64,000 nt of DNA, taken from an uncultured Gemmatimonadales bacterium. Lineage in GTDB: Bacteria; Gemmatimonadota; Gemmatimonadetes; Longimicrobiales; RSA9. The stretch lies in assembly GCA_963741945.1 (NCBI GenBank), contig CAVUKA010000001.1:1056001-1120000 (forward strand), written 5' to 3'. Position numbers and translations under genes: made by a program. Each line of letters begins with the position of its first letter. Position 1 is the first letter of the stretch. This document shows positions 44,208 through 56,834 of the stretch, piece after piece. The notes under the pieces are model-generated. The model saw nothing but the letters and a program-made list of their open reading frames with translations, did not search any database and was not told the DNA's origin.

Positions 44208-45761
44208 TCAGGGCAGGTATGCCGCGGTCAGCTCCCTGAACGTCTCGACCTGAGCGTCAATCCAGGCGGCGTCACGGCCCAGCTCGCGGGCGATGAGCCC
44301 GGCGACGCGCGGCGCGGCGTCGGCGGCAGCGCGAGCGTCGAGGAGGAGTGCGCGAGTGCGGCGGGAGAGGACGTCCTCGACCGTGCGTGCCATCTCGTGG
44401 CGCGCGGCCCAGACCACCTGGCCCGCACGGATGTCGAAGGCGGGGTGGATGGGCGCCTGCCAGTCGGCGTTCTCGGTGATGAGCTCGCGGAGCGCGGGTG
44501 CGTCGGAGCCGTAATGCTCGAGCTCGGCGAAGCGATCGGCATGGGCGTGATAGCCGTGGATGCGGAGTCCGCGGGTGGTGCAGGGGCGGTCATCGAGGCC
44601 GGCGAGGGTGGCGGCCTGGTCGACGGTGTCCTCGGCCATCTTCCGGTACGTGGTCCACTTCCCGCCGGCAATGGTCACGAGGCCGGACTCGGAGATGAGG
44701 AGGGTGTGGTCGCGGGATAGGGAGGCGGTGGAGCCCTCGTCGTCCGCGCCGACGAGCGGCCGCAGGCCTGCGAAGATGCTGAGGATGTCGGAGGGCTCGG
44801 GATCCCGATCGAGGTAGCGTCCCGCGTGCTCGAGGAGGAAGTCCACCTCCTCCGCCATCGGCCTGGGCTCGAGCGACGGCCCGGGGACGGGCGTGTCGGT
44901 GGTGCCGACCACCACGCGATCGAGCCAGGGGATGGCGAAGAGGACGCGGCCGTCGTCCGTCTTCGGGACCATGATGGCGCTCTCGCCGGGGAGGAAATCC
45001 CGCGGGAGCACCAGGTGGATGCCCTGGCTCGGGCGGATGAGATGCGGCGCCGCGGGGTCGTCCATACGACGGAGCTCGTCGGTCCAGACGCCGGTGGCGC
45101 TGACGACGACGGCGCCGCGCAGCTCGTGCTCGCGCCCGCTCTCCTCGTCCCGCGCCCGCACGCCGACCACCTCTCCACCCTGCTTGAGGAGCTCCAGCAC
45201 ACGGACGTAGTTGACCAGGACGGCTCCCTGCTCGGCGGCCGTCTGAGCCATGTTGATGGCGAGCCGGGCGTCGTCGAACTGGCCGTCGTAGTAGATGACG
45301 CCGCCGTTCAGCCCTTCCGGCTCGAGGGTGGGGAGGAGCTGGAGGGTGCGCTCGCGGGAGAGCAGCCTTGAGCGGCCGAACCCCTGCTTCCCCGCCAGGA
45401 GATCGTACATCTTCAGGCCAATGCCATAGAACGGCCCTTCCCACCACTCGTAGTTGGGCACCACGAAGGAGAGGTTCCGGACCAGGTGGGGCGCGTTGGC
45501 CAGCAGCAGCCCGCGCTCCTTGAGAGCCTCGATGACCAGCGCGACGTTCCCCTGCTGCAGGTAGCGGACTCCGCCGTGCACCAGCTTCGTGCTCCGGCTC
45601 GATGTGCCCTTCGCGAAGTCGCTCTGCTCCAGCAGCAGCGTGCGGTATCCCCGCGATGCCGCATCGATGGCGACGCCGAGTCCCGTCGCGCCGCCGCCCA
45701 CCACGATGAACTCCCACGGCTCGTCCGCATCCAGGCGCGCGATCATCCGATCCCGGTTCAT
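44208..45761 (-). CDS. glpD: FAD-dependent glycerol-3-phosphate dehydrogenase/oxidase
   Basis: GGGATG, DFAKGTSSRSTKLVHGGVRYL, DGQFDDARL, GTTD, GLRPL, GGKWTTYR. Confidence 0.92.
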   Translation of the reverse strand: MNRDRMIARLDADEPWEFIVVGGGATGLGVAIDAASRGYRTLLLEQSDFAKGTSSRSTKLVHGGVRYLQQGNVALVIEALKERGLLLANAPHLVRNLSFVVPNYEWWEGPFYGIGLKMYDLLAGKQGFGRSRLLSRERTLQLLPTLEPEGLNGGVIYYDGQFDDARLAINMAQTAAEQGAVLVNYVRVLELLKQGGEVVGVRARDEESGREHELRGAVVVSATGVWTDELRRMDDPAAPHLIRPSQGIHLVLPRDFLPGESAIMVPKTDDGRVLFAIPWLDRVVVGTTDTPVPGPSLEPRPMAEEVDFLLEHAGRYLDRDPEPSDILSIFAGLRPLVGADDEGSTASLSRDHTLLISESGLVTIAGGKWTTYRKMAEDTVDQAATLAGLDDRPCTTRGLRIHGYHAHADRFAELEHYGSDAPALRELITENADWQAPIHPAFDIRAGQVVWAARHEMARTVEDVLSRRTRALLLDARAAADAAPRVAGLIARELGRDAAWIDAQVETFRELTAAYLP

Positions 45762-45894
45762 GGCCCTCTCCAGTGTGCTCGTCTGCCCGGCAACCGCATC
45801 CTGCCAAGGTAAGCGTGGATGGCGGGCCAGGCATGGGGTCTGCGGCATCGAGGAGGAACGGACACGGAAGGAGCCAACCCGCCGAGGAGCATTC

Positions 45895-46530
45895 ATGACG
45901 CGCATCATCCTCCGCCCTGGAGCCGCCGGTCGAGCGCTGCCGATCATTGCCCTGGCCCTGGCCGCGTGCAACGGTGGCGTGGCACTCCCCGGGCCGGGGG
46001 GCGGCCCCGCGCCGGGTCCCCTGACCATCGACATCTCCCCTGAGCAGGGCACGCGCGGCGAGGGCGTGCGCGTGCAGGCGTGGGGGTTCCAGCCCGGGGC
46101 CCGGGTCGACATCGGCTTCGGGCCGCCCGACTCCGAGTACGAAGTCATCGCCCACGCGGTGGCGGGAGAGCAAGGGCAGGTGGACGTGCGAGTGGACGTG
46201 CCGGAATGGGCGGACACGGAGCGCGACTATGTCTTCGTGGCCGATTCTCCCCGGGGCAGGCGAGTGGTGTCCGATCCGTTCCGTGTGATTGCGGCGGGCG
46301 CCCCGGCGCAAGTCACGGTGACGGGCGTGCTCACGGGTGAAGGGGTGGAGTGTCCGGCGCTCCGAACGGACCAGGGCAAGCTGTACACGCTGGCCGGCGA
46401 TCTGGGCGGGCATCGGGAGGGGGACCGGGTGACGGTCACCGGGTCGATCGCCGAGGCATCCGTCTGCATGCAGGGCACCACGCTGAGCATTGCCCGGATC
46501 ACGGCGGCTGGCGGCGGCTCGAGCCGGTAA
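45895..46530 (+). CDS. Lipoprotein with Ig-like and DUF5818-like domains
   Basis: lipobox LAAC; EGVEC…YTL.G…GDRV.VTG…S.CMQG; RBS GAGGAG. Confidence 0.7.
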   Translation: MTRIILRPGAAGRALPIIALALAACNGGVALPGPGGGPAPGPLTIDISPEQGTRGEGVRVQAWGFQPGARVDIGFGPPDSEYEVIAHAVAGEQGQVDVRVDVPEWADTERDYVFVADSPRGRRVVSDPFRVIAAGAPAQVTVTGVLTGEGVECPALRTDQGKLYTLAGDLGGHREGDRVTVTGSIAEASVCMQGTTLSIARITAAGGGSSR

Positions 46531-46847: not shown

Positions 46848-48209
46848 ATGTCGGACTATATCTCCGAGTTGATGGCCGATGTGAAAGCGAAGGATCCGGC
46901 CCAGCCCGAATTCCACCAGGCGGTGCAGGAGGTCGCGGAATCCATCGAGCTCGTGCTCGAGCGGCACCCGGAGTATCAGGCTTCGAAGATCCTCGAGCGG
47001 ATCATCGAGCCGGAGCGGTTGATCATGTTCCGGGTGCCGTGGATCGACGACGAGGGAACGCCGCAGATCAATCGCGGATTCCGCATCGAGATGAACAGCG
47101 CGATCGGACCCTACAAGGGCGGACTCCGCTTCCACCCGTCCGTGAATGTGGGCATCCTGAAGTTCCTCGCCTTCGAGCAGGTCTTCAAGAACGCGCTCAC
47201 GACGCTGCCCATGGGCGGCGGCAAGGGCGGCAGTGACTTCGACCCGAAAGGCAAGAGCGACAACGAGGTGATGCGCTTCTGCCAGAGCTTCATGACGGAG
47301 CTGTGGCGTCACATCGGCCCGAACACGGACGTCCCGGCCGGCGACATCGGGGTGGGCGGCCGCGAGGTGGGCTTCCTGTTCGGGCAGTACAAGCGCATCG
47401 CCAACGAGTTCACCGGCGTTCTCACGGGGAAGGGTCTGAACTGGGGCGGGTCGTTGATTCGTCCGGAAGCCACCGGCTACGGCGCCGTGTACTTCGCGGC
47501 CAACATGCTGAAGACGCGCGACGCGACCCTGGAAGGGAAGACCTGCCTGGTCTCCGGCTCGGGGAACGTGGCCCAGTACACGGCCGAAAAGCTGATCGAG
47601 CTGGGCGCCCGTGTGGTGACGCTCTCGGATTCCAGCGGCTACATCTATGACGAGGCCGGGGTGGACCGTGAGAAGCTCGCGTTCATCATGGACCTGAAGA
47701 ACAAGCGCCGCGGCCGCATCGAGGAGTACGCCGAGAAGTTCGATGGTGTGGTGTACACGCCCGTGGAGCCCGAGCGCGATCACGATCCGCTGTGGGACCA
47801 CGACGCGGATTGCGCGTTCCCCAGCGCCACGCAGAACGAGATCAACGGCAAGGACGCCGCCAACCTGCTGAAGAACGGGGTATACGTCGTGTCCGAGGGC
47901 GCGAACATGCCCACCGTGCCGGCGGGCGTCGAGCAGTTCATCGACGCCGGCATCCTGTACGGCCCCGGGAAGGCGGCGAACGCGGGCGGTGTGGCCGTGT
48001 CCGGGCTGGAGATGGCGCAGAACAGCATGCGGTACGGCTGGACGCGGGAAGAGGTGGACCACCGGTTGCAGCTGATCATGAAGAACATCCACGACACGTG
48101 TCTGGCGGCCGCGGAGCGCTTCGGCGCCCCCGGCAACTACGTCCACGGCGCGAACATCGCCGGGTTCCTCAAGGTGGCGGACGCCATGATCGACCAGGGG
48201 ATGGTCTGA
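46848..48209 (+). CDS. gdhA: NAD(P)-specific glutamate dehydrogenase
   Basis: EFHQAV, GPYKGGLRFH, MGGGKGG, DVPAGDIGVG, RPEATGYG, GSGNV, EGANMP, KAANAGGV. Confidence 0.96.
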   Translation: MSDYISELMADVKAKDPAQPEFHQAVQEVAESIELVLERHPEYQASKILERIIEPERLIMFRVPWIDDEGTPQINRGFRIEMNSAIGPYKGGLRFHPSVNVGILKFLAFEQVFKNALTTLPMGGGKGGSDFDPKGKSDNEVMRFCQSFMTELWRHIGPNTDVPAGDIGVGGREVGFLFGQYKRIANEFTGVLTGKGLNWGGSLIRPEATGYGAVYFAANMLKTRDATLEGKTCLVSGSGNVAQYTAEKLIELGARVVTLSDSSGYIYDEAGVDREKLAFIMDLKNKRRGRIEEYAEKFDGVVYTPVEPERDHDPLWDHDADCAFPSATQNEINGKDAANLLKNGVYVVSEGANMPTVPAGVEQFIDAGILYGPGKAANAGGVAVSGLEMAQNSMRYGWTREEVDHRLQLIMKNIHDTCLAAAERFGAPGNYVHGANIAGFLKVADAMIDQGMV

Positions 48210-48223
48210 CGACACCTACCGAT

Positions 48224-48256
48224 GCCGGCGGGGTCCGCGAGCCGGGCCCCGCCGGC
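48224..48256 (+). terminator. GC-rich hairpin between gdhA and downstream gene, without U-tract (mRNA-stabilising or weak terminator)
   Basis: GCCGGCGGGGTCCG-CGAGC-CGGGCCCCGCCGGC. Confidence 0.4.
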
Positions 48257-48291
48257 CTCCTCACTGCTGTGCGCACGACTCCAGGAGATGC

Positions 48292-51276
48292 ATGAACTCG
48301 AACCTGATCCCGTTCGACCACGCGGAATGGCACGGTAGCGGTGCGGGCGGGTTTCAGGAGCTGATGCGGGAGCAGGTCCGCAACGTCCTCATCGTCTCCA
48401 GCCTGTACGAATCGTTCATCATGGCCGAGGACGGGCAGCTGAACGAGCTCCTCCTGACCAAGTTCCTGGACGTCAACCTGAGTCAGGCGCCCCGCCTGAC
48501 GCACGTCTCCACCGGTGAGGAGGCGCTGCAGCTCGCGCGCGAGCCGAACCGCTTCGACCTCATCCTGACCGCGCTCGACGTCGGGGACATGAACGCGGTG
48601 GAGCTGGCGCGGCGGGCGAGGAACGCGGGCGTCCGCCTGCCCATCTGCCTGCTGGCGTACGACTACCGGGAGCTGAAGGAGTTCCGGGCCCGACACGACA
48701 TGTCGGAGATCGAGCGCAGCTTCCTCTGGCAGGGCGATGTCCGGATCCTGCTGGCCATCGTGAAGTACATCGAGGACAAGCTGAACGTGGAGCACGACTC
48801 CCGGGTCGGCGTCCCGGTGCTGCTGGTGGTGGAGGACAACGTGCGGCACTACTCGTCCTTCCTGCCGGTGATCTTCACGGAAATCATGAAGCACAGCCAG
48901 GGGGTCATCTCCGAAGGGCTGAACCTGTCGCAGAAGCTGCTTCGGATGCGGGCCCGCCCCAAGATCCTGCTCGCGACGCGCTTCGAAGACGCATGGTCCA
49001 TGTTCACGCGCTACCAGGAGAACATCCTGGGCGTGATCACGGACATCGAGTATCCGCGCCAGGGGCAGCTGGACGCGAATGCCGGCATCCTGCTCGCCAA
49101 CCGCATCCGCGAGGCGCGCCCCGACCTCCCGATCGCGCTCCAGTCCAGCCACCCGGGCAACCACCGGCTCGCGCAGGAGATCGGCGCGAGCTTCCTCCAG
49201 AAGGGCTCACCCGACATGCTGGCGCGCCTGCGCGACCTGCTGATCGAGGAGTTCTTCTTCGGCGACTTCGTCTTCCGCATGCCCACGGGCGAGGAGATCG
49301 ACCGGGCGAAGAACCTCAAGGAGCTGGTGGAGAAGCTGCGGACGGTGCCCGCCGAAAGCATCGCCTTTCATGGCGCCCGCAACGACTTCTCGAGCTGGCT
49401 GCGCGCCCGGGCCGAGTTCGAGCCGGCGGAGAAGCTGCGCCGGCGCAAGGTGAGCGATTTCCCATCGCTGGAGCACGTCCGGCTCAGCCTGGTGCGGGCC
49501 ATTGACGAGTACCGGCGGGAACGGAACCGGGGCACGGTGGCGGATTTCGATCCGGCCACGTTCGATCCGACCATGGGCATTGCCCGGATCGGCGGCGGTT
49601 CGCTGGGTGGCAAGGCCCGGGGACTGGCCTTCGCCATCCGGCTGCTGGACCGTTACCGCGTCGCCGAGCGGTTCCCCGGCATCCGCATCAGCGTCCCACC
49701 CGCGGTAGTGCTGGGAACGGACGTGTTCGAGGAGTTCCTCGAGGCCAACGACCTGCGGGAGCTGTCGCTGCGCAGCGAAAGCGACGAGGAGATCGTCCAG
49801 CGATTCAGCGACGCCACGTTCCCTGTCGGCGTCCGCGCGCAGCTGGGGCAGTTCCTCGCGATGATGGGCGCGCCACTGGCCGTCCGCTCCTCCAGCCTCC
49901 TCGAGGATTCTCCCCACCAGCCGTTCGCGGGGATCTTCGAGACGCTCATGCTGCCGAACGACCACCCGGAGGTGGAGATCCGGCTGGACCGGCTGGTGAC
50001 CGCCATCAAGCGCGTGTACGCCTCCACGTTCTCGCAGCGCACGAAGGCCTTCCTCCGCGCCACGCCGTACCGGCTGGAGGAGGAGCAGATGGCCGTGGTC
50101 ATCCAGAAAGTGGTGGGACGGCGCCACGAGAACTGGTTCTATCCGGATTTCGCGGGCGTCGCCCGCTCGTACAACTTCTATCCCACGGCCCCGCTCGACC
50201 CCGAGGACGGGATCGTGGCGGTGGCGCTGGGGTTCGGTCGGACCGTGGTGGAAGGCGAGCCATGCCTCCGCTTCTCACCCGCGCACCCGCGCCACATCGT
50301 CGAGTTCTCCAGCGTGGAGGACATGCTGAAGAATGCGCAGCGGGAGTTCTGGGCGCTGGAGCTCAGTCCGAACGGCCACGGGGTGCCCGTTCGTGACCAG
50401 CTGCAGCGGCTGACCGTGGAGGACGCGGAGCGCCACGGGGTCCTCGGCGCCCTCGGCTCCACGTACTCGCCCGAGAACCACGCGGTGTACGACGGGATCG
50501 CCCGCGACGGCATCCGTCTGGTGACGTTCGCGCCCATCCTCAAGAACCGCGTCTTCCCGCTGGCGGAGATCGTGGGTGAGCTCCTGGACATCGGCGCCGC
50601 GGCCACCAGCTCCCCGGTGGAGATCGAGTTCGCCGTGGACCTGTCCACTGCCGGCGACGAGCCGCAGGAGCTCGGATTCCTCCAGCTCCGGCCGCTCGCT
50701 CCAAGCCGCGAGCTCGACGACCTCGAGATCGGCGACCTGGACCCCGCAGAGCTCGTGTGCGAGAGCCCGTGGGTCCTGGGGAACGGGCGTCTCGAGAACG
50801 TCCACGACCTCCTGGTCATCGACCCGTCCTGCTTCGACCGCGGGGCCACGCGGGAGACCGCACGCGCGGTCGGCCGGCTCAACGCCCGGCTGGTGGCCAA
50901 GGGCCTTCCATACGTCCTCATCGGCGTCGGCCGCTGGGGCTCCAGCCACCCCGAGCTGGGGATCCCCGTCGGCTGGGACGACATCTCCGGCGCCGTGGCC
51001 ATCATCGAAGCCGGCCTCCCCGACCTCCGGGTCACGCCATCACAGGGAACCCACTTCTTCCAGAACCTGGCGTCGTGCAACGTGGGCTACTTCACCGTCA
51101 ACGACCATCGCGGCGAGGGCTTCGTGGACTGGGAATGGCTGTCCGGCCAGGCGCATTCCGGCACCGAGGGATGCGTCCGGCACCTCCGCTTCGAGGACCC
51201 CGTGGAGGTGATCATGGTGGGCCACGAGCACCGTGGCGTGGTGAGGAAACCGGTGCCCGCGGCCGGGGGCGAGTGA
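48292..51276 (+). CDS. Receiver-domain / PPDK-PEP synthase-type ATP-grasp protein of unknown function
   Basis: LVVED…ITDIEYP…QSS…QKG receiver; GGKARGL, AVRSS..EDS…FAG, EIEFA, LQLRP ATP-grasp; C-terminal SQGTHFF. Confidence 0.82.
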   Translation: MNSNLIPFDHAEWHGSGAGGFQELMREQVRNVLIVSSLYESFIMAEDGQLNELLLTKFLDVNLSQAPRLTHVSTGEEALQLAREPNRFDLILTALDVGDMNAVELARRARNAGVRLPICLLAYDYRELKEFRARHDMSEIERSFLWQGDVRILLAIVKYIEDKLNVEHDSRVGVPVLLVVEDNVRHYSSFLPVIFTEIMKHSQGVISEGLNLSQKLLRMRARPKILLATRFEDAWSMFTRYQENILGVITDIEYPRQGQLDANAGILLANRIREARPDLPIALQSSHPGNHRLAQEIGASFLQKGSPDMLARLRDLLIEEFFFGDFVFRMPTGEEIDRAKNLKELVEKLRTVPAESIAFHGARNDFSSWLRARAEFEPAEKLRRRKVSDFPSLEHVRLSLVRAIDEYRRERNRGTVADFDPATFDPTMGIARIGGGSLGGKARGLAFAIRLLDRYRVAERFPGIRISVPPAVVLGTDVFEEFLEANDLRELSLRSESDEEIVQRFSDATFPVGVRAQLGQFLAMMGAPLAVRSSSLLEDSPHQPFAGIFETLMLPNDHPEVEIRLDRLVTAIKRVYASTFSQRTKAFLRATPYRLEEEQMAVVIQKVVGRRHENWFYPDFAGVARSYNFYPTAPLDPEDGIVAVALGFGRTVVEGEPCLRFSPAHPRHIVEFSSVEDMLKNAQREFWALELSPNGHGVPVRDQLQRLTVEDAERHGVLGALGSTYSPENHAVYDGIARDGIRLVTFAPILKNRVFPLAEIVGELLDIGAAATSSPVEIEFAVDLSTAGDEPQELGFLQLRPLAPSRELDDLEIGDLDPAELVCESPWVLGNGRLENVHDLLVIDPSCFDRGATRETARAVGRLNARLVAKGLPYVLIGVGRWGSSHPELGIPVGWDDISGAVAIIEAGLPDLRVTPSQGTHFFQNLASCNVGYFTVNDHRGEGFVDWEWLSGQAHSGTEGCVRHLRFEDPVEVIMVGHEHRGVVRKPVPAAGGE

Positions 51277-51359: not shown

Positions 51360-53477
51360 CTACGCTTCGATCGGGAGGCGGCGGGGCCGCCGGGCCGTGG
51401 CCGCGAAGATCGCGTTGGCGACCGCGGCGGCGAGCGGCGGCACGGGCGGCTCACCGATGCCGGTGGGCGGATCGGCGCTCGGCACCACGTGCACTTCCAC
51501 TTCCGGCATCTCGTCGATCCTGAGGACCGGGTAGTCGGTGAAGTTCCCCTGCTCGACCGCCCCATCGCGGACAGTGATCTGGTGCTTCAGGGTGAAGCCG
51601 AGGGCGAGGGTGATCGCCCCCTCGACCTGCTCCCGGAGTGGTCCGGGGTTCACGACCTGGCCGCAATGCACGGCGCACACCACACGGTGGACCCTGACCT
51701 GTCCGTCCTCCACGGAGATCTCGGCCACCTCGGCGACGTGGGAGCGGAAGGAGGAGACGGCGGCGATGCCCAGCGTGCGGCCCGCCGTCGCCTTGCCCCA
51801 GCCCGCCCGGCTGGCGGCGAGGTCGAGGGCGTCCCGGAGCCTGGGCTCGGTCATGAGATCGCGCCTGAACCGGTACGGGTCCTTCCCGGCGGCGTGCGCC
51901 AGCTCGTCGATGAAGCTCTCGATGACGAACCCGAAGTGTGTGTACGTCACGGAACGCCATGCGCCGGTGGGGATAGCGGTGTCCCGGATGTGGAAATCGC
52001 CCCTGAAGTTCGGGAGACGGTACGGCGGGGACTCCAGGCCGGGCACCACCAGACCCCGCGGGCCGGCGCCGACCACCCGGTGAGTCCAGGCCACCGGCTC
52101 GCCCCGCGGGTCGAGGCCGCCCCGGAGCCGATGATAGGTGAGCGGCCGGTACGCGCCGTTGCGGATCGAGTCCTCGCGCGTCCACAGCACCTGCACCGGC
52201 CCATCGACCCGCTTCGCCACCTCCACGGCCAGCTCGACGTCGTCCGTCTCGAGCCGCCGACCGAAGCCGCCGCCGATGAACGGCACGTGCATCACCACGT
52301 TCGCCACCGGAACGCCAGCGACGCGGGCGGCGGTCTGCTGCGACGCGGTGGCCACCTGCGTGGGCACCCACACCTCCACGCCCCCGTCGCGGACGTGGGC
52401 CACCGCGTTCAGCGGCTCCATCGGGGCGTGATCGATGAACGGGAGGGCGTAGTCCGCCTCGACCACCCGGGCCGCGCTGGCGAGCGCGCCGTCGGGATCG
52501 CCCGCCTCGCGCGCCACCGTGCCCGGGGAGTCGGCGAGCGCTTCGAAATCGGAGAACAGGGCGTCGCTGGACAGCCCCGTCGCCGGCGACGTGTCCCAGT
52601 CCAGCGAGAGCGCAGCGCGACCTTTCAGCGCCGCCCACGTGCTCCGCGCCACCACGGCCACGCCCTGCGGCACCTGCACCACGTCGACCACTCCCGGGAC
52701 GCGGCGAGCGGCGGCGTCATCGTGGCGGCGGAGTGTGGCGCCGAACGCCGGCGGGCGCGCCACTGTGGCCACGAGCATGCCGGGGAGCGCGATGTCGAGA
52801 CCGAAAACGGCGCTCCCATCCACTTTGGTGGCGACGTCGAGGCGAGGTTTCCCCTGGCCCACGATCCTGAAGTCCCGCGGGTCCTTCAATGGCGGATCCG
52901 TGGGCACGGGCATGCCGCGCGCGTGCTCCACCAGCGCGCCATAGCCGAGCCGACGACCGTCCTTCGTGTTGACCACGAACCCGTTCTCGGTCCGGACCTG
53001 GTCCGGCATCACGCTCCACTGCGCCGCCGCCGCCCGCTTCAGCATCTCACGCGCGGTGGCACCCGCCTTCCGCAGCGGCTCCCAGGCCATCCGCGTGCTC
53101 GTGCTCCCGCCCGTGGAAATGTCCCGCACCCACCCCGCGGGGTTCGCGGGAATCGGGAGCGGACGAACCTGGCTCCAGTCCGCGTCCAGCTCCTCGGCCA
53201 CGATCATGGGGAGCGTCGTCGTGACCCCCTGCCCGAGCTCGGCCTCATCCACCACCACCGAGACCGTCCCGTCGGGGTCGATCCGCAGCCACGCGGCCGG
53301 GCTGAACGCCTCCGACGCCGTGCCGCTCCCGTCCGTCGGCGCAGGACTGCCGGCGGCCGCACCCGCAGGGAGCCATTCCCGATCGGCCGCCGGGAAGTGG
53401 ATCACGAGGACCAGGGCCGCTCCACCCTTTCCGGCCGTGATCAGGAAGTCCCGCCGATTCAGGGATTCGTCACGCAT
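51360..53477 (-). CDS. Tat-exported xanthine-oxidase-family molybdoprotein (isoquinoline/aldehyde oxidoreductase beta-type)
   Basis: NRRDFL, ELGQG, TGGS.S, HAPMEP, GGGFGRR, WRS, GIGEP. Confidence 0.9.
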
Positions 53478-53940
53478 GGCTCACCTCCTCGGCCGCACGC
53501 CGGATCGCTTTTCGAACGCGCAGATAGGTCCCGCAGCGACAGAGGTTGCCGGCCATCCCGCGATCGATCTCTTCATCGCTCGGGTCCGGAGTCCGCGCCA
53601 GCAGGGACGCAGCCTGCATCAGCATGCCGGGCTGGCAGTAGCCGCACTGCGGCACTTCCTCCGCCAACCACGCGCGCTGCAACGCCTCCAGCACACGATC
53701 CCCCGGCGCACCCTCGATGGTCCGTACCTCCCGGTTCGCCGCCACCGTGATGGGAGTGACGCAGGAGCGGGTGGCCACGCCATCGACGTTCACCGTGCAC
53801 GCGCCGCACACGGCCACGCCACACGAGTACTTGGTTCCCTTCAGGCCGAGATCATCGCGCAGCACCCAGAGCAGCGGCGTGTCGCCGGGCACATCCACCG
53901 TGCGACGCTCGCCGTTCACGGTCAGGGTGAAAACGGGCAT
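53470..53940 (-). CDS. 2x[2Fe-2S] small subunit of the molybdoenzyme
   Basis: GTKYSCG…[21 protein letters not shown]. Confidence 0.92.
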
Positions 53941-54207
53941 GGAGAGCCTCCGTAGGACGGTTTCGGTCACGGTCGGGCGCTCGCCGCCGATGCGCAATCG
54001 GGCAAACGCCGCATCGGGTGTGGGGGAGTCCCGGACGCGCTCCGCCTCGTCCCCCGCGCCGCCGCTCGCCCCGCGCCGAAATCACGGCTGGCGGAACCAG
54101 CGCGGCACGCCCCAAGTACATAGCGGGGAAGGCGCGCGCTTCCGGGCGCGCCCAACGATCCCAGCCCGGCCCCACCCCGGGAGCGCCGGCGCCAAGGAGA
54201 ACCAGCC

Positions 54208-55364: not shown

Positions 55365-56834
55365 GTGGTGGAGCAGAACGGGGAGCGGGCGCAGGCCCTG
55401 AGGGAGCAGGGTCACCGGCTGGTGGAGCGGATGGCGGACTATCTGGACACAGTCGAAGCGCGGCCGGTGTCGACGCCGAAAGGCCCTGCCGCCCTGGAAG
55501 CCGAGTTCCAGGACGTGCTGCCGCGGGTGGGCGCCCCCGCCGAAGGGGTTTGGGACGATGTCTTCGAGCGCATCGTCGGCGACTCGATCCATCTCGCTCA
55601 CCCCATGTACATGGGCCACCAGGTCGCGCCGCCGCTGCCGGAAGCGGTGCTCGCGGACGCGCTCGCCAGCCTGCTGAACCAGTCGACCGCAGTGTGGGAG
55701 ATGTCGCCCACGGGAACGTTCGTGGAGCAGCGGGTGATCGCGTGGATGCGGGAGCTCATCGGCTTTCCTGCCGGGAGCGACGGCACGCTGGTCTCCGGGG
55801 GGAGCGCGGCGAACCTGACGGGGCTGCTGGCGGCGAGGGAGGCGGTGTTCCCGGGGGCGTGGGAAGGCGGCGTGGCAGGCCGGGAAGGGCTGGGGCGGGC
55901 CGTGGTCTTCGTCGCAGCGCACGCGCACTACTCCGTCGAGCGCGCGGTGGGCGTGATGGGACTGGGCGCCGGGGCCGTTGCGGGCGTCGCGGAGCGCGAG
56001 TTCCGGCTCGACCCCGAGGCGCTGCGGGATGCCATAGCCCGCGCTCGCTCGGCCGACCGGATCCCGCTGGCCATCGTGGCCACGGCAGGGAGCACGGCCA
56101 CGGGCCTCGTGGATGACCTGCAGGCGGTGGCCGACGTGGCGGCGGAGACGGGCGTCTGGCTCCACGTGGACGGCGCCCATGGCGCGTCGCTGCTGGCGAG
56201 CGAGCGGCTGCGCGACCGGCTGCGAGGGATCGAGCGCGCCGATTCCGTGGCCTGGGACCCGCACAAGATGATGTTCATGCCCATCTCGGCCAGCGCCGTG
56301 GTGGTGCGGGACCGACGGCACCTCGACGCCGCGTTCCGGCAGAGCGCGCCCTACCTCTTCCACCCCCGCCCCGGCGAGGCGCGCTCCCGCGACATCGGCC
56401 AGCGCACGCTCCAGTGCTCGAAGCGCTTCGACGCCCTCAAGCTCTGGATCACGCTCCGGCACCACGGGCTCGACCACTTCGCCCGGCTGCAGGAGCGGAC
56501 GGTCGAGAACGCGGCGGTGCTGCACCGCAAGCTGTCGGAAGCCGCCGACTTCGAGCCCGCCCATGCTCCCGCGACGAACATCCTCTGCTTCCGCCACCTC
56601 CCCGCCCCGATCCGGGATCTGGAGGCGGCCGGCGAGGCCGATCGCGTGGACGAGTTCCAGGGATCGCTGCGGGAAGCCTACAACGCATCCGGGCGGGGGT
56701 GGATCACCACCACCGTGCTCGGAGGCCGCCGCGTCCTGCGCGTCACGCTGATGAACCCGGGCACCCGGGAAACGCACCTGGAACGGCTGCTCGACGGGCT
56801 CAGGGAAACGGGCGCGGAGCTGCCCGGCGTATGA
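55365..56834 (+). CDS. Group II PLP-dependent amino-acid decarboxylase (DABA/aromatic/glutamate type)
   Basis: HP.YMGHQ, SGGS.AN, HYS, TAGST.TG, HVDGAHG, DPHK (PLP Lys). Confidence 0.9.
   Translation: MVEQNGERAQALREQGHRLVERMADYLDTVEARPVSTPKGPAALEAEFQDVLPRVGAPAEGVWDDVFERIVGDSIHLAHPMYMGHQVAPPLPEAVLADALASLLNQSTAVWEMSPTGTFVEQRVIAWMRELIGFPAGSDGTLVSGGSAANLTGLLAAREAVFPGAWEGGVAGREGLGRAVVFVAAHAHYSVERAVGVMGLGAGAVAGVAEREFRLDPEALRDAIARARSADRIPLAIVATAGSTATGLVDDLQAVADVAAETGVWLHVDGAHGASLLASERLRDRLRGIERADSVAWDPHKMMFMPISASAVVVRDRRHLDAAFRQSAPYLFHPRPGEARSRDIGQRTLQCSKRFDALKLWITLRHHGLDHFARLQERTVENAAVLHRKLSEAADFEPAHAPATNILCFRHLPAPIRDLEAAGEADRVDEFQGSLREAYNASGRGWITTTVLGGRRVLRVTLMNPGTRETHLERLLDGLRETGAELPGV

Follow-up and report, generated by a model that had tools for sequence, protein, structure and literature searches.

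Glutamate dehydrogenase (GDH) lies at the junction of carbon and nitrogen metabolism, and we know of no general post-translational regulator of the NADP-dependent enzyme of bacteria. In a 64,000-nucleotide (nt) stretch of DNA from an uncultured Gemmatimonadales bacterium (assembly GCA_963741945.1, contig CAVUKA010000001.1, positions 1,056,001 to 1,120,000; hereafter the window), the stop codon of gdhA is followed after 82 nt, on the same strand, by an open reading frame (ORF) for a 994-amino-acid (aa) protein in which receiver domains, an ATP-grasp domain of the pyruvate phosphate dikinase (PPDK) type and a C-terminal domain with a conserved histidine are joined. What is such a protein doing beside gdhA? 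An original prediction, made from the sequence alone, proposed that the ATP-grasp domain phosphorylates the histidine and that the phosphate passes to the protein's own receiver aspartate or to GDH. Here we report that the positional and phyletic link of this family to GDH genes is very strong. The 994-aa protein probably controls GDH, because its position after the GDH gene is kept in many bacterial phyla. We regard as about evenly balanced the fuller reading, in which the protein is a receiver-gated, barrel-less derivative of the phosphoenolpyruvate (PEP) synthase, PPDK and rifampin phosphotransferase (RPH) enzymes that works with GDH and makes no PEP.

Linkage to glutamate dehydrogenase genes

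A scan of genome contigs matched at least 833 stretches, 814 of which were confirmed, and the best 80 loci were kept. A GdhA neighbour was counted where the flanks of a locus held a tblastn match of at least 55% identity to the GdhA of the window; matches of 30–35% identity, which belong to a second GDH type, were left out of these counts. GdhA was found beside the family gene in 52 of the 80 loci, the orthologues being 57–87% identical, and in 40 of the 48 loci that have at least 3 kb of flank on both sides. Twenty of the loci without GdhA have a short flank on at least one side. The gdhA gene lies upstream on the same strand in 39 loci and downstream on the same strand in seven; it is downstream on the opposite strand in four, upstream on the opposite strand in one and between tandem copies of the family gene in one. 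Record titles place the linked loci in Acidobacteriota, Gemmatimonadota, Eisenbacteria, Zixibacteria, Bacteroidota, Myxococcota, Krumholzibacteriia, Fibrobacteraceae, Desulfobacteraceae and Hyphomicrobiales, about ten phylum-level groups.

When the ORFs of the 80 loci were clustered, gdhA alone stood out as a neighbour recurring widely. Other genuine neighbour families reach 10 loci at most, and the remaining large clusters are frames overlapping the family gene or gdhA. No histidine kinase gene was recurrent in the 80 neighbourhoods. The original prediction had pointed to similar genes beside gdh in other phyla and had proposed neighbourhood statistics with gdhA as a check; these counts bear the link out.

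The phyletic pattern was assessed in 151 evenly sampled genomes of the same phylum, with thresholds of E ≤ 1e-30 for the core of the family (the ATP-grasp and His domains) and E ≤ 1e-60 for GdhA. The family is present in 20 of these genomes and GdhA in 31 (a count that includes genome G010). GdhA is present in all 20 family-bearing genomes, and the family is absent from each of the 120 that lack GdhA. The two genes share a contig and are separated by less than 2 kb in 18 of the 20, in co-directional, divergent or convergent arrangement, and the remaining two are fragmented assemblies. Among close relatives, 4 of 21 carry the family. We give no test statistic for this co-occurrence because related genomes are not independent. 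Functional coupling of the family to GDH, or to the metabolites of GDH, appears highly probable.

An NfnAB-like pair was also seen beside the family gene in about 10 loci, mostly downstream and most of them labelled Acidobacteriota (among them L012, L016, L025, L030, L033, L041, L043, L048 and L050). It consists of a GltD-like protein with Fer4_20 and Pyr_redox_2 domains and an FNR-like protein with DHODB_Fe-S_bind. The pair may reflect a link to NADPH supply, or lineage synteny.

Domain architecture of the 994-aa protein

The neighbouring gdhA product scores 749.8 bits against the NADP-specific GDH model NF006929 (cut-off 536). In the 994-aa protein, Pfam recognises PPDK_N (PF01326; 132.1 bits, cut-off 27) and, over residues 337–412, DUF5752 (PF19027; 29.3 bits, cut-off 23), the latter covering positions 18–107 of a 208-position profile. 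A Response_reg match at residues 44–122 stays under its cut-off (26.7 against 30.2 bits). Residues 804–994 have no Pfam match at E ≤ 1. The PEP/pyruvate TIM barrel of canonical enzymes (PF02896, PEP-utilizers_C) is likewise without a Pfam match, and the protein ends only 73 residues past H921, the histidine discussed below. Some relatives carry the database name 'histidine kinase', which we set aside, as Pfam finds no HisKA/DHp or GHKL ATPase domain at E ≤ 1 in the 994-aa protein. Together with the structure models described below, these matches uphold the originally predicted order of two receivers, DUF5752-like segment, ATP-grasp and C-terminal His domain, and the ORF does start 82 nt after gdhA as had been noted (Table 1).

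Table 1. Features of the gdhA locus, in window positions
Feature	Position	Strand	Basis
gdhA, NADP-type glutamate dehydrogenase, 453 aa	46848..48209	+	NF006929, ELFV_dehydrog, ELFV_dehydrog_N
GC-rich hairpin, 14 bp, without a U tract, in the 82-nt spacer	48221..48259	+	RNA fold
Whole gene, 994 aa: pseudo-receiver, receiver, DUF5752-like segment, ATP-grasp, putative His carrier domain	48292..51276	+	
REC1, residues 29–165, degenerate pseudo-receiver without acceptor Asp	48376..48786	+	model, fold match
REC2, residues 173–324, intact receiver (E181, D182, D251, S285, K304)	48808..49263	+	model, alignment
DUF5752-like segment, residues 326–412, beta hairpin then five helices	49267..49527	+	PF19027, model
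PPDK_N-type ATP-grasp nucleotide-binding domain, residues 437–803	49600..50700	+	PF01326, 132 bits
Putative C-terminal carrier domain, residues 812–988, swivel-like fold, H921 in S-x-G-[ST]-H-F-F	50725..51255	+	model, alignment

The nucleotide- and Mg-binding residues of the ATP-grasp domain are conserved by alignment: K441 (in a GGK motif), R532 (in the RSSS-LED motif), E777, E779 and Q798 do not vary among the 40 aligned sequences. Sequence matches of this domain in the PDB are weak and comprise RPH (the best, E 0.002) and the PEP synthase ATP-grasp. Its closest NCBIfam models are those of RPH-like 'PEP synthases' and of the ligases PigC and RedH, all scoring far under their cut-offs. The PPDK_N match spreads 367 residues over 308 profile positions, which amounts to about 60 extra residues.

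The tandem receiver module

Residues 1–425 were modelled with AlphaFold from an alignment of 56 sequences (pLDDT 85.8, pTM 0.85), and the model contains two receiver folds. The first, REC1, is closest to the Asp-less receiver RitR (4lzl_A; Z 14.0, root-mean-square deviation (rmsd) 2.4, 120 residues aligned). At the position of its acceptor the alignment has S, T or A, and the acidic pair, the Ser/Thr and the Lys are all absent. The second, REC2, is not recognised by Pfam, and its receiver fold comes from the AlphaFold model, where it matches ComE (4cbv_A) and 3t6k_B (Z 14.7, rmsd 2.0–2.3). E181, D251 (codon 49042–49044), S285 and K304 are invariant in all 56 aligned relatives, which range from 25% to 96% identity, and D182 is present in at least 90%. 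A degenerate receiver followed by an intact one had been predicted, and the catalytic set is indeed confined to REC2. The search with this model listed no structural match to the DUF5752-like segment.

In a Foldseek search with residues 1–425, the tandem-receiver protein PleD ranked first (E 1.2e-06). As in PleD-type modules, a true receiver is paired with a degenerate one to form a control module ahead of an enzymatic output. The degenerate receiver comes first in the 994-aa protein, however, and the output is an ATP-grasp/His module where PleD has a GGDEF domain.

A predicted phosphohistidine carrier domain

Canonical PEP-utilizers mobile domains (PF00391) hold their catalytic histidine in a loop of the G-G-x-T-S-H type, and present phosphohistidine at the start of a helix that follows a strand and a loop. 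The last 195 residues of the 994-aa protein were modelled from an alignment of 40 sequences (pLDDT 89.6). In this model H921 (codon 51052–51054), part of the SQGTHFF motif at residues 917–923, is the first residue of a helix (fragment residues 122–129) that follows a strand (102–108) and a loop. The prediction hinged on conservation of this histidine, and H921 is invariant in 121 of 121 domains (the 120 long enough to use among 158 domain matches from the 150 best representatives of 50%-identity clusters, plus the query), as are G919, R881 and G890. The other histidine nearby, H886, was discarded because the position is Asp in 106 of the 121 domains.

When the model was compared with 48,161 chains using VIA-align, the top match was the His domain of RPH (5hv1_A 756–867; Z 7.3, rmsd 3.3, 112 residues aligned). 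It was followed by the pyruvate kinase C-terminal domain of B. stearothermophilus (2e28_A; Z 7.2), maize PPDK (1vbg_A 373–512; Z 7.0), the PPDK phosphoryl carrier domain 2fm4 (Z 6.7), a DRTGG protein (Z 6.6) and, in sixth to eighth place, three enzyme I N-terminal domains (Z 5.9–6.2). A second look among the 1000 best chains from Foldseek gave nine best rows that are all phospho-His or pyruvate kinase swivel domains (Z 5.8–7.3). The model therefore suggests a swivel-type phospho-His carrier fold, an assignment that is consistent and fits the context. A reading as a Ser-His-Glu hydrolase (LD-carboxypeptidase), raised by weak Foldseek rows (E ~0.009, TM 0.34, rmsd 7.8), was rejected because VIA-align places LdcA at Z 4.3–5.7, under the phospho-His domains. 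A search of the ESM Atlas with the C-terminal domain returned only fragments of the same family, and by sequence searches the domain stands alone.

Family size, core-only members and paralogs

The family is large: at least 7958 database relatives, as clusters at 90% identity, and at least 814 species-level genomes carry it, and the C-terminal domain was found in 1629 representative clusters at E ≤ 0.001. In all 70 listed representatives of at least 500 aa, the ATP-grasp domain precedes the C-terminal His domain. Among these 70, 46 have the five-domain architecture, nine are core only (534–619 aa, ATP-grasp and His domain alone), three have a doubled core, and the rest are probably truncated.

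The genome that contains the window encodes two more, receiver-less paralogs (at G000:C3), and holds no separate copy of the receiver module. One, of 579 aa, is 41% identical to the 994-aa protein over residues 407–988 and starts 24 nt after a gene for a second GDH (430 aa), itself 33% identical to GdhA. This pairing is found in six of the seven loci that hold this paralog, the locus in this genome included. A third subfamily, 27–31% identical, lies beside GdhA-type genes in three of five loci. In each of the three paralogs the ATP-grasp motifs are retained, as are GRWGS and S-x-G-[ST]-H-F-F. A complex prediction for the second GDH (residues 10–429) with the 579-aa paralog, run without controls, gave scores of 0.29 and 0.00 against a mark of 0.32 and speaks neither for nor against a complex.

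The invariant unit of the family is thus the ATP-grasp plus the His domain, and it is this unit that accompanies GDH; most members carry the receiver module in addition. The receiver looks more like a control input than an essential output, because receiver-less paralogs also adjoin GDH genes, because nine of the 70 listed representatives are core only, and because no separate receiver module is encoded in this genome.

Several further arrangements were recorded. At G000:C3:728248-734151 (L085 6248-12151, minus strand) the gene for the 430-aa GDH is followed after 24 nt by that for the 579-aa paralog and, about 750 nt further on, by that for a 699-aa third paralog, a three-gene layout that recurs in five other genomes of the phylum. 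Three proteins of 1523–1654 aa (P0127, P0145 and P0183) have the order ATP-grasp, His, ATP-grasp, His in a single chain. Such chains suggest that the short paralog type and the third type work together. In about nine of the 80 loci (L005, L057, L069, L070, L072, L077, L080 and others) a second full-length family gene lies in tandem or nearby, and in L080 gdhA lies between the two copies.

Proposed mode of action

The most likely role would be that of an ATP-driven, His-phosphorylating regulator that acts on GDH or its node and is gated by the receiver. The ATP-grasp domain would use ATP to phosphorylate His921 on the mobile C-terminal domain, in the manner of PPDK, RPH and the mycobacterial kinase VadK. 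Such ATP-dependent autophosphorylation of the histidine is likely in our judgement. The charged carrier domain would then act on the GDH node, most likely on GDH itself, either by phosphotransfer or by phosphorylation-dependent binding as suggested for VadK with methylcitrate synthase. That the protein acts directly on GDH is put forward more tentatively, at somewhat less than an even chance. The tandem receiver module would switch the activity on or off through Asp251 in response to a histidine kinase.

A number of observations weigh against this reading. Eight of the 48 well-flanked loci have no gdhA within 6 kb (L023, L032, L033, L034, L038, L039, L069 and L084). The two linked classes of GDH are only 33% identical, which a common metabolite would explain as well as a common protein surface. 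If Asp251 were the phosphoryl acceptor, strict invariance of the catalytic residues in REC2 would be expected just as much. The proposed equivalence of H921 to the catalytic histidine of swivel domains is suggested by its position in the modelled secondary structure and by its invariance. All Z values of the carrier domain are below 8, in a range that the tool calls common for unrelated folds, so the fold assignment is not proven. Sequence comparisons of the C-terminal domain were negative throughout: there was no PF00391 match at E ≤ 1, hhalign against 13 canonical swivel domains (windows matching the search pattern among 28 loci) gave E values of 0.82 and 0.41 in global and local mode, and a profile of 26 C-terminal domains retrieved no PDB sequence at E ≤ 10. 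Foldseek, named in the original prediction as a check, also found no match to the C-terminal model at E ≤ 0.001, while the top of the VIA-align ranking was occupied by phospho-His domains. The predicted resemblance of the SQGTHFF domain to the phospho-His loop of swivel domains is therefore suggested at the level of fold (Z 5.8–7.3) and fails at the level of sequence, where no similarity was found.

Alternative explanations

Could the protein instead be a self-contained, non-GHKL phosphorelay? Here the ATP-grasp domain would charge His921, the phosphate would move on to Asp251 in cis or across a dimer, and the phosphorylated receiver would act on GDH. Both His921 (121/121) and the REC2 catalytic set (56/56) are invariant, no histidine kinase gene recurs in the 80 neighbourhoods, and the fused form is the commonest architecture (46/70), all of which would suit a relay. 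Yet receiver-less cores are paired with GDH genes too, so coupling to GDH does not need Asp251; core-only proteins make up nine of the 70 listed representatives, the genome offers its two short paralogs no separate receiver module, and an ordinary input receiver would be expected to conserve these residues just as well. Transfer to the protein's own receiver Asp, as originally proposed, is weakened as an obligatory step. A His-to-Asp relay would be possible for the long form but, given the receiver-less cores, could not be the general mechanism of the family, and we consider the self-contained relay unlikely. It is similarly doubtful that the protein is a single-polypeptide non-GHKL signalling kinase, whose ATP-grasp-charged histidine feeds its own receiver Asp, phosphorylates GDH directly, or does both.

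A serious rival is a small-molecule dikinase like RPH, PigC or glucan-water dikinase, since the family is partnered with both GDH classes although these share only 33% identity, and a shared metabolite would explain this more simply. In such an enzyme His921 would carry the beta-phosphate from ATP to a GDH-node metabolite, for example 2-oxoglutarate, glutamate or a derivative, and the receiver would control flux. This would agree with the RPH-like 'PEP synthase', PigC and RedH models that come closest to the ATP-grasp domain (all far under cut-off), with RPH as the top structural match of the carrier domain, and with the roughly 60 extra residues within the ATP-grasp domain. There is, however, no recognisable substrate-binding domain, the core-only forms of 534–619 aa consisting of ATP-grasp and His domain, and no transporter or further pathway enzyme is recurrent beside the gene. 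Overall we judge the dikinase improbable.

It is very unlikely that the linkage to gdhA has no direct functional meaning, with the two genes moving as a cassette or kept together by accident of descent, and the 994-aa protein being a response regulator aimed at something else. In favour of this are the patchy distribution (20 of the 151 sampled genomes of the phylum, 4 of the 21 close relatives) and the high identity of GdhA across phyla (65–82%), which would agree with joint transfer of the two genes. Against this, the link survives rearrangement into four orientations, it holds for three protein subfamilies and two GDH classes, and no member of the family was found in the 120 genomes that lack GdhA.

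An ordinary PEP synthase or PPDK, to which the PPDK_N domain and the name 'putative phosphoenolpyruvate synthase' of some family fragments might point, is almost certainly the wrong identification: the protein ends at residue 994 without a PEP/pyruvate-binding barrel (no PF02896 match) and so should not be a working PEP synthase, as had been predicted, all NCBIfam PEP synthase and PPDK models score far under their cut-offs (10–57 bits against 456–1063), and canonical PF00391-bearing proteins are encoded elsewhere in the same genome (the tally being 12 of 13 genomes, G010 included).

Relation to known systems

The closest described system is VadK (Rv1127c) of M. tuberculosis, a barrel-less, PPDK-derived histidine kinase (PMC13400623, EMBO Rep 2026). 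According to that report, VadK is a truncated PPDK of about 50 kDa without receivers, autophosphorylates His422 with ATP and Mg, captures methylcitrate-cycle enzymes in pull-downs, and is proposed to control a metabolic enzyme through direct interaction and not via transcription. Compared by description only, VadK and the 994-aa protein both combine an ATP-binding domain with a phospho-His domain (a predicted one here) and lack a PEP/pyruvate barrel, and by analogy regulation of a metabolic enzyme through direct interaction is the model that we hold most likely for GDH. They differ in that the 994-aa protein has two receivers and a DUF5752-like segment, in that its putative carrier domain does not resemble canonical swivel domains in sequence, and in the partner, which is methylcitrate synthase/dehydratase for VadK and, by gene linkage, GDH here.

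RPH (5hv1, 5fbu) shares the order of the core, with the ATP-grasp first and the His swivel domain (a putative one here) at the C terminus, and is both the top structural match for the C-terminal domain (Z 7.3) and the best, if weak, PDB sequence match for the ATP-grasp (E 0.002). In RPH, however, a large rifampin-binding domain separates ATP-grasp and His domain, whereas nothing lies between them in the 994-aa protein; RPH has no receivers, and the NCBIfam RPH model gives the 994-aa protein 28 bits against a cut-off of 999. With PpsA and PPDK the protein has in common a PPDK_N ATP-grasp in which the nucleotide and Mg residues are conserved, and a predicted swivel-like fold of the putative His carrier. 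It differs from them in lacking the PEP-utilizers_C barrel, in having a carrier domain that PF00391 does not recognise, and in the addition of about 430 N-terminal residues of signalling domains.

A census of response regulators lists proteins with the combination 'REC + pyruvate phosphate dikinase' (Galperin et al. 2018, PMC5847659), which is probably the same architecture as that of the 994-aa protein. The available text of the census gives the domain combination only, with no function, GDH link or description of the C-terminal domain. Literature searches on DUF5752, on gdhA with dikinase, receiver and Bacteroides, and more broadly, found no paper on the function of the family. One candidate for a prior account (PMC12096838) was set aside, as it concerns separate genes of Shewanella.

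Genomic context in the window

The start codon of the 994-aa gene is an ATG preceded at 5 nt by AGGAG, and a promoter and terminator scan found nothing in the spacer between it and gdhA. The spacer does fold into a hairpin (Table 1). The predicted fold of positions 48207–48294 has a free energy of -42.2 kcal/mol (z -3.2), and none of 200 shuffled sequences was equally stable. This hairpin may be an intercistronic attenuator or stabiliser and could set the ratio of the two products. No Rfam family was found anywhere within the window.

Directly upstream of gdhA, a 313-aa ORF with a C-terminal DUF5818 domain (45589–46530, plus strand) overlaps the 5' part of a minus-strand glycerol-3-phosphate dehydrogenase-like ORF call (44208–46217), the true start of which probably lies further in than called. 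Downstream are a molybdopterin oxidoreductase large subunit with a 2Fe-2S subunit (51360–53997, minus strand) and a group II pyridoxal phosphate-dependent decarboxylase (55365–56834, plus strand). These downstream genes look ordinary, and none is recurrent beside the family in other loci.

Implications for ammonium assimilation

This is a large family, common in phyla of soil and sediment such as Acidobacteriota and Gemmatimonadota, that has stayed beside GDH genes through many rearrangements. Whether it controls GDH is a question that can be answered with two purified proteins. If it does, the family would be the second case after VadK, and a far more widespread one, in which a PPDK-type enzyme has come to regulate a metabolic enzyme, and it would connect ammonium assimilation with two-component signalling in a way that is new. 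Should the less likely single-polypeptide kinase prove to be correct, many phyla would possess a post-translational, ATP-dependent switch of ammonium assimilation of a kind never described before.

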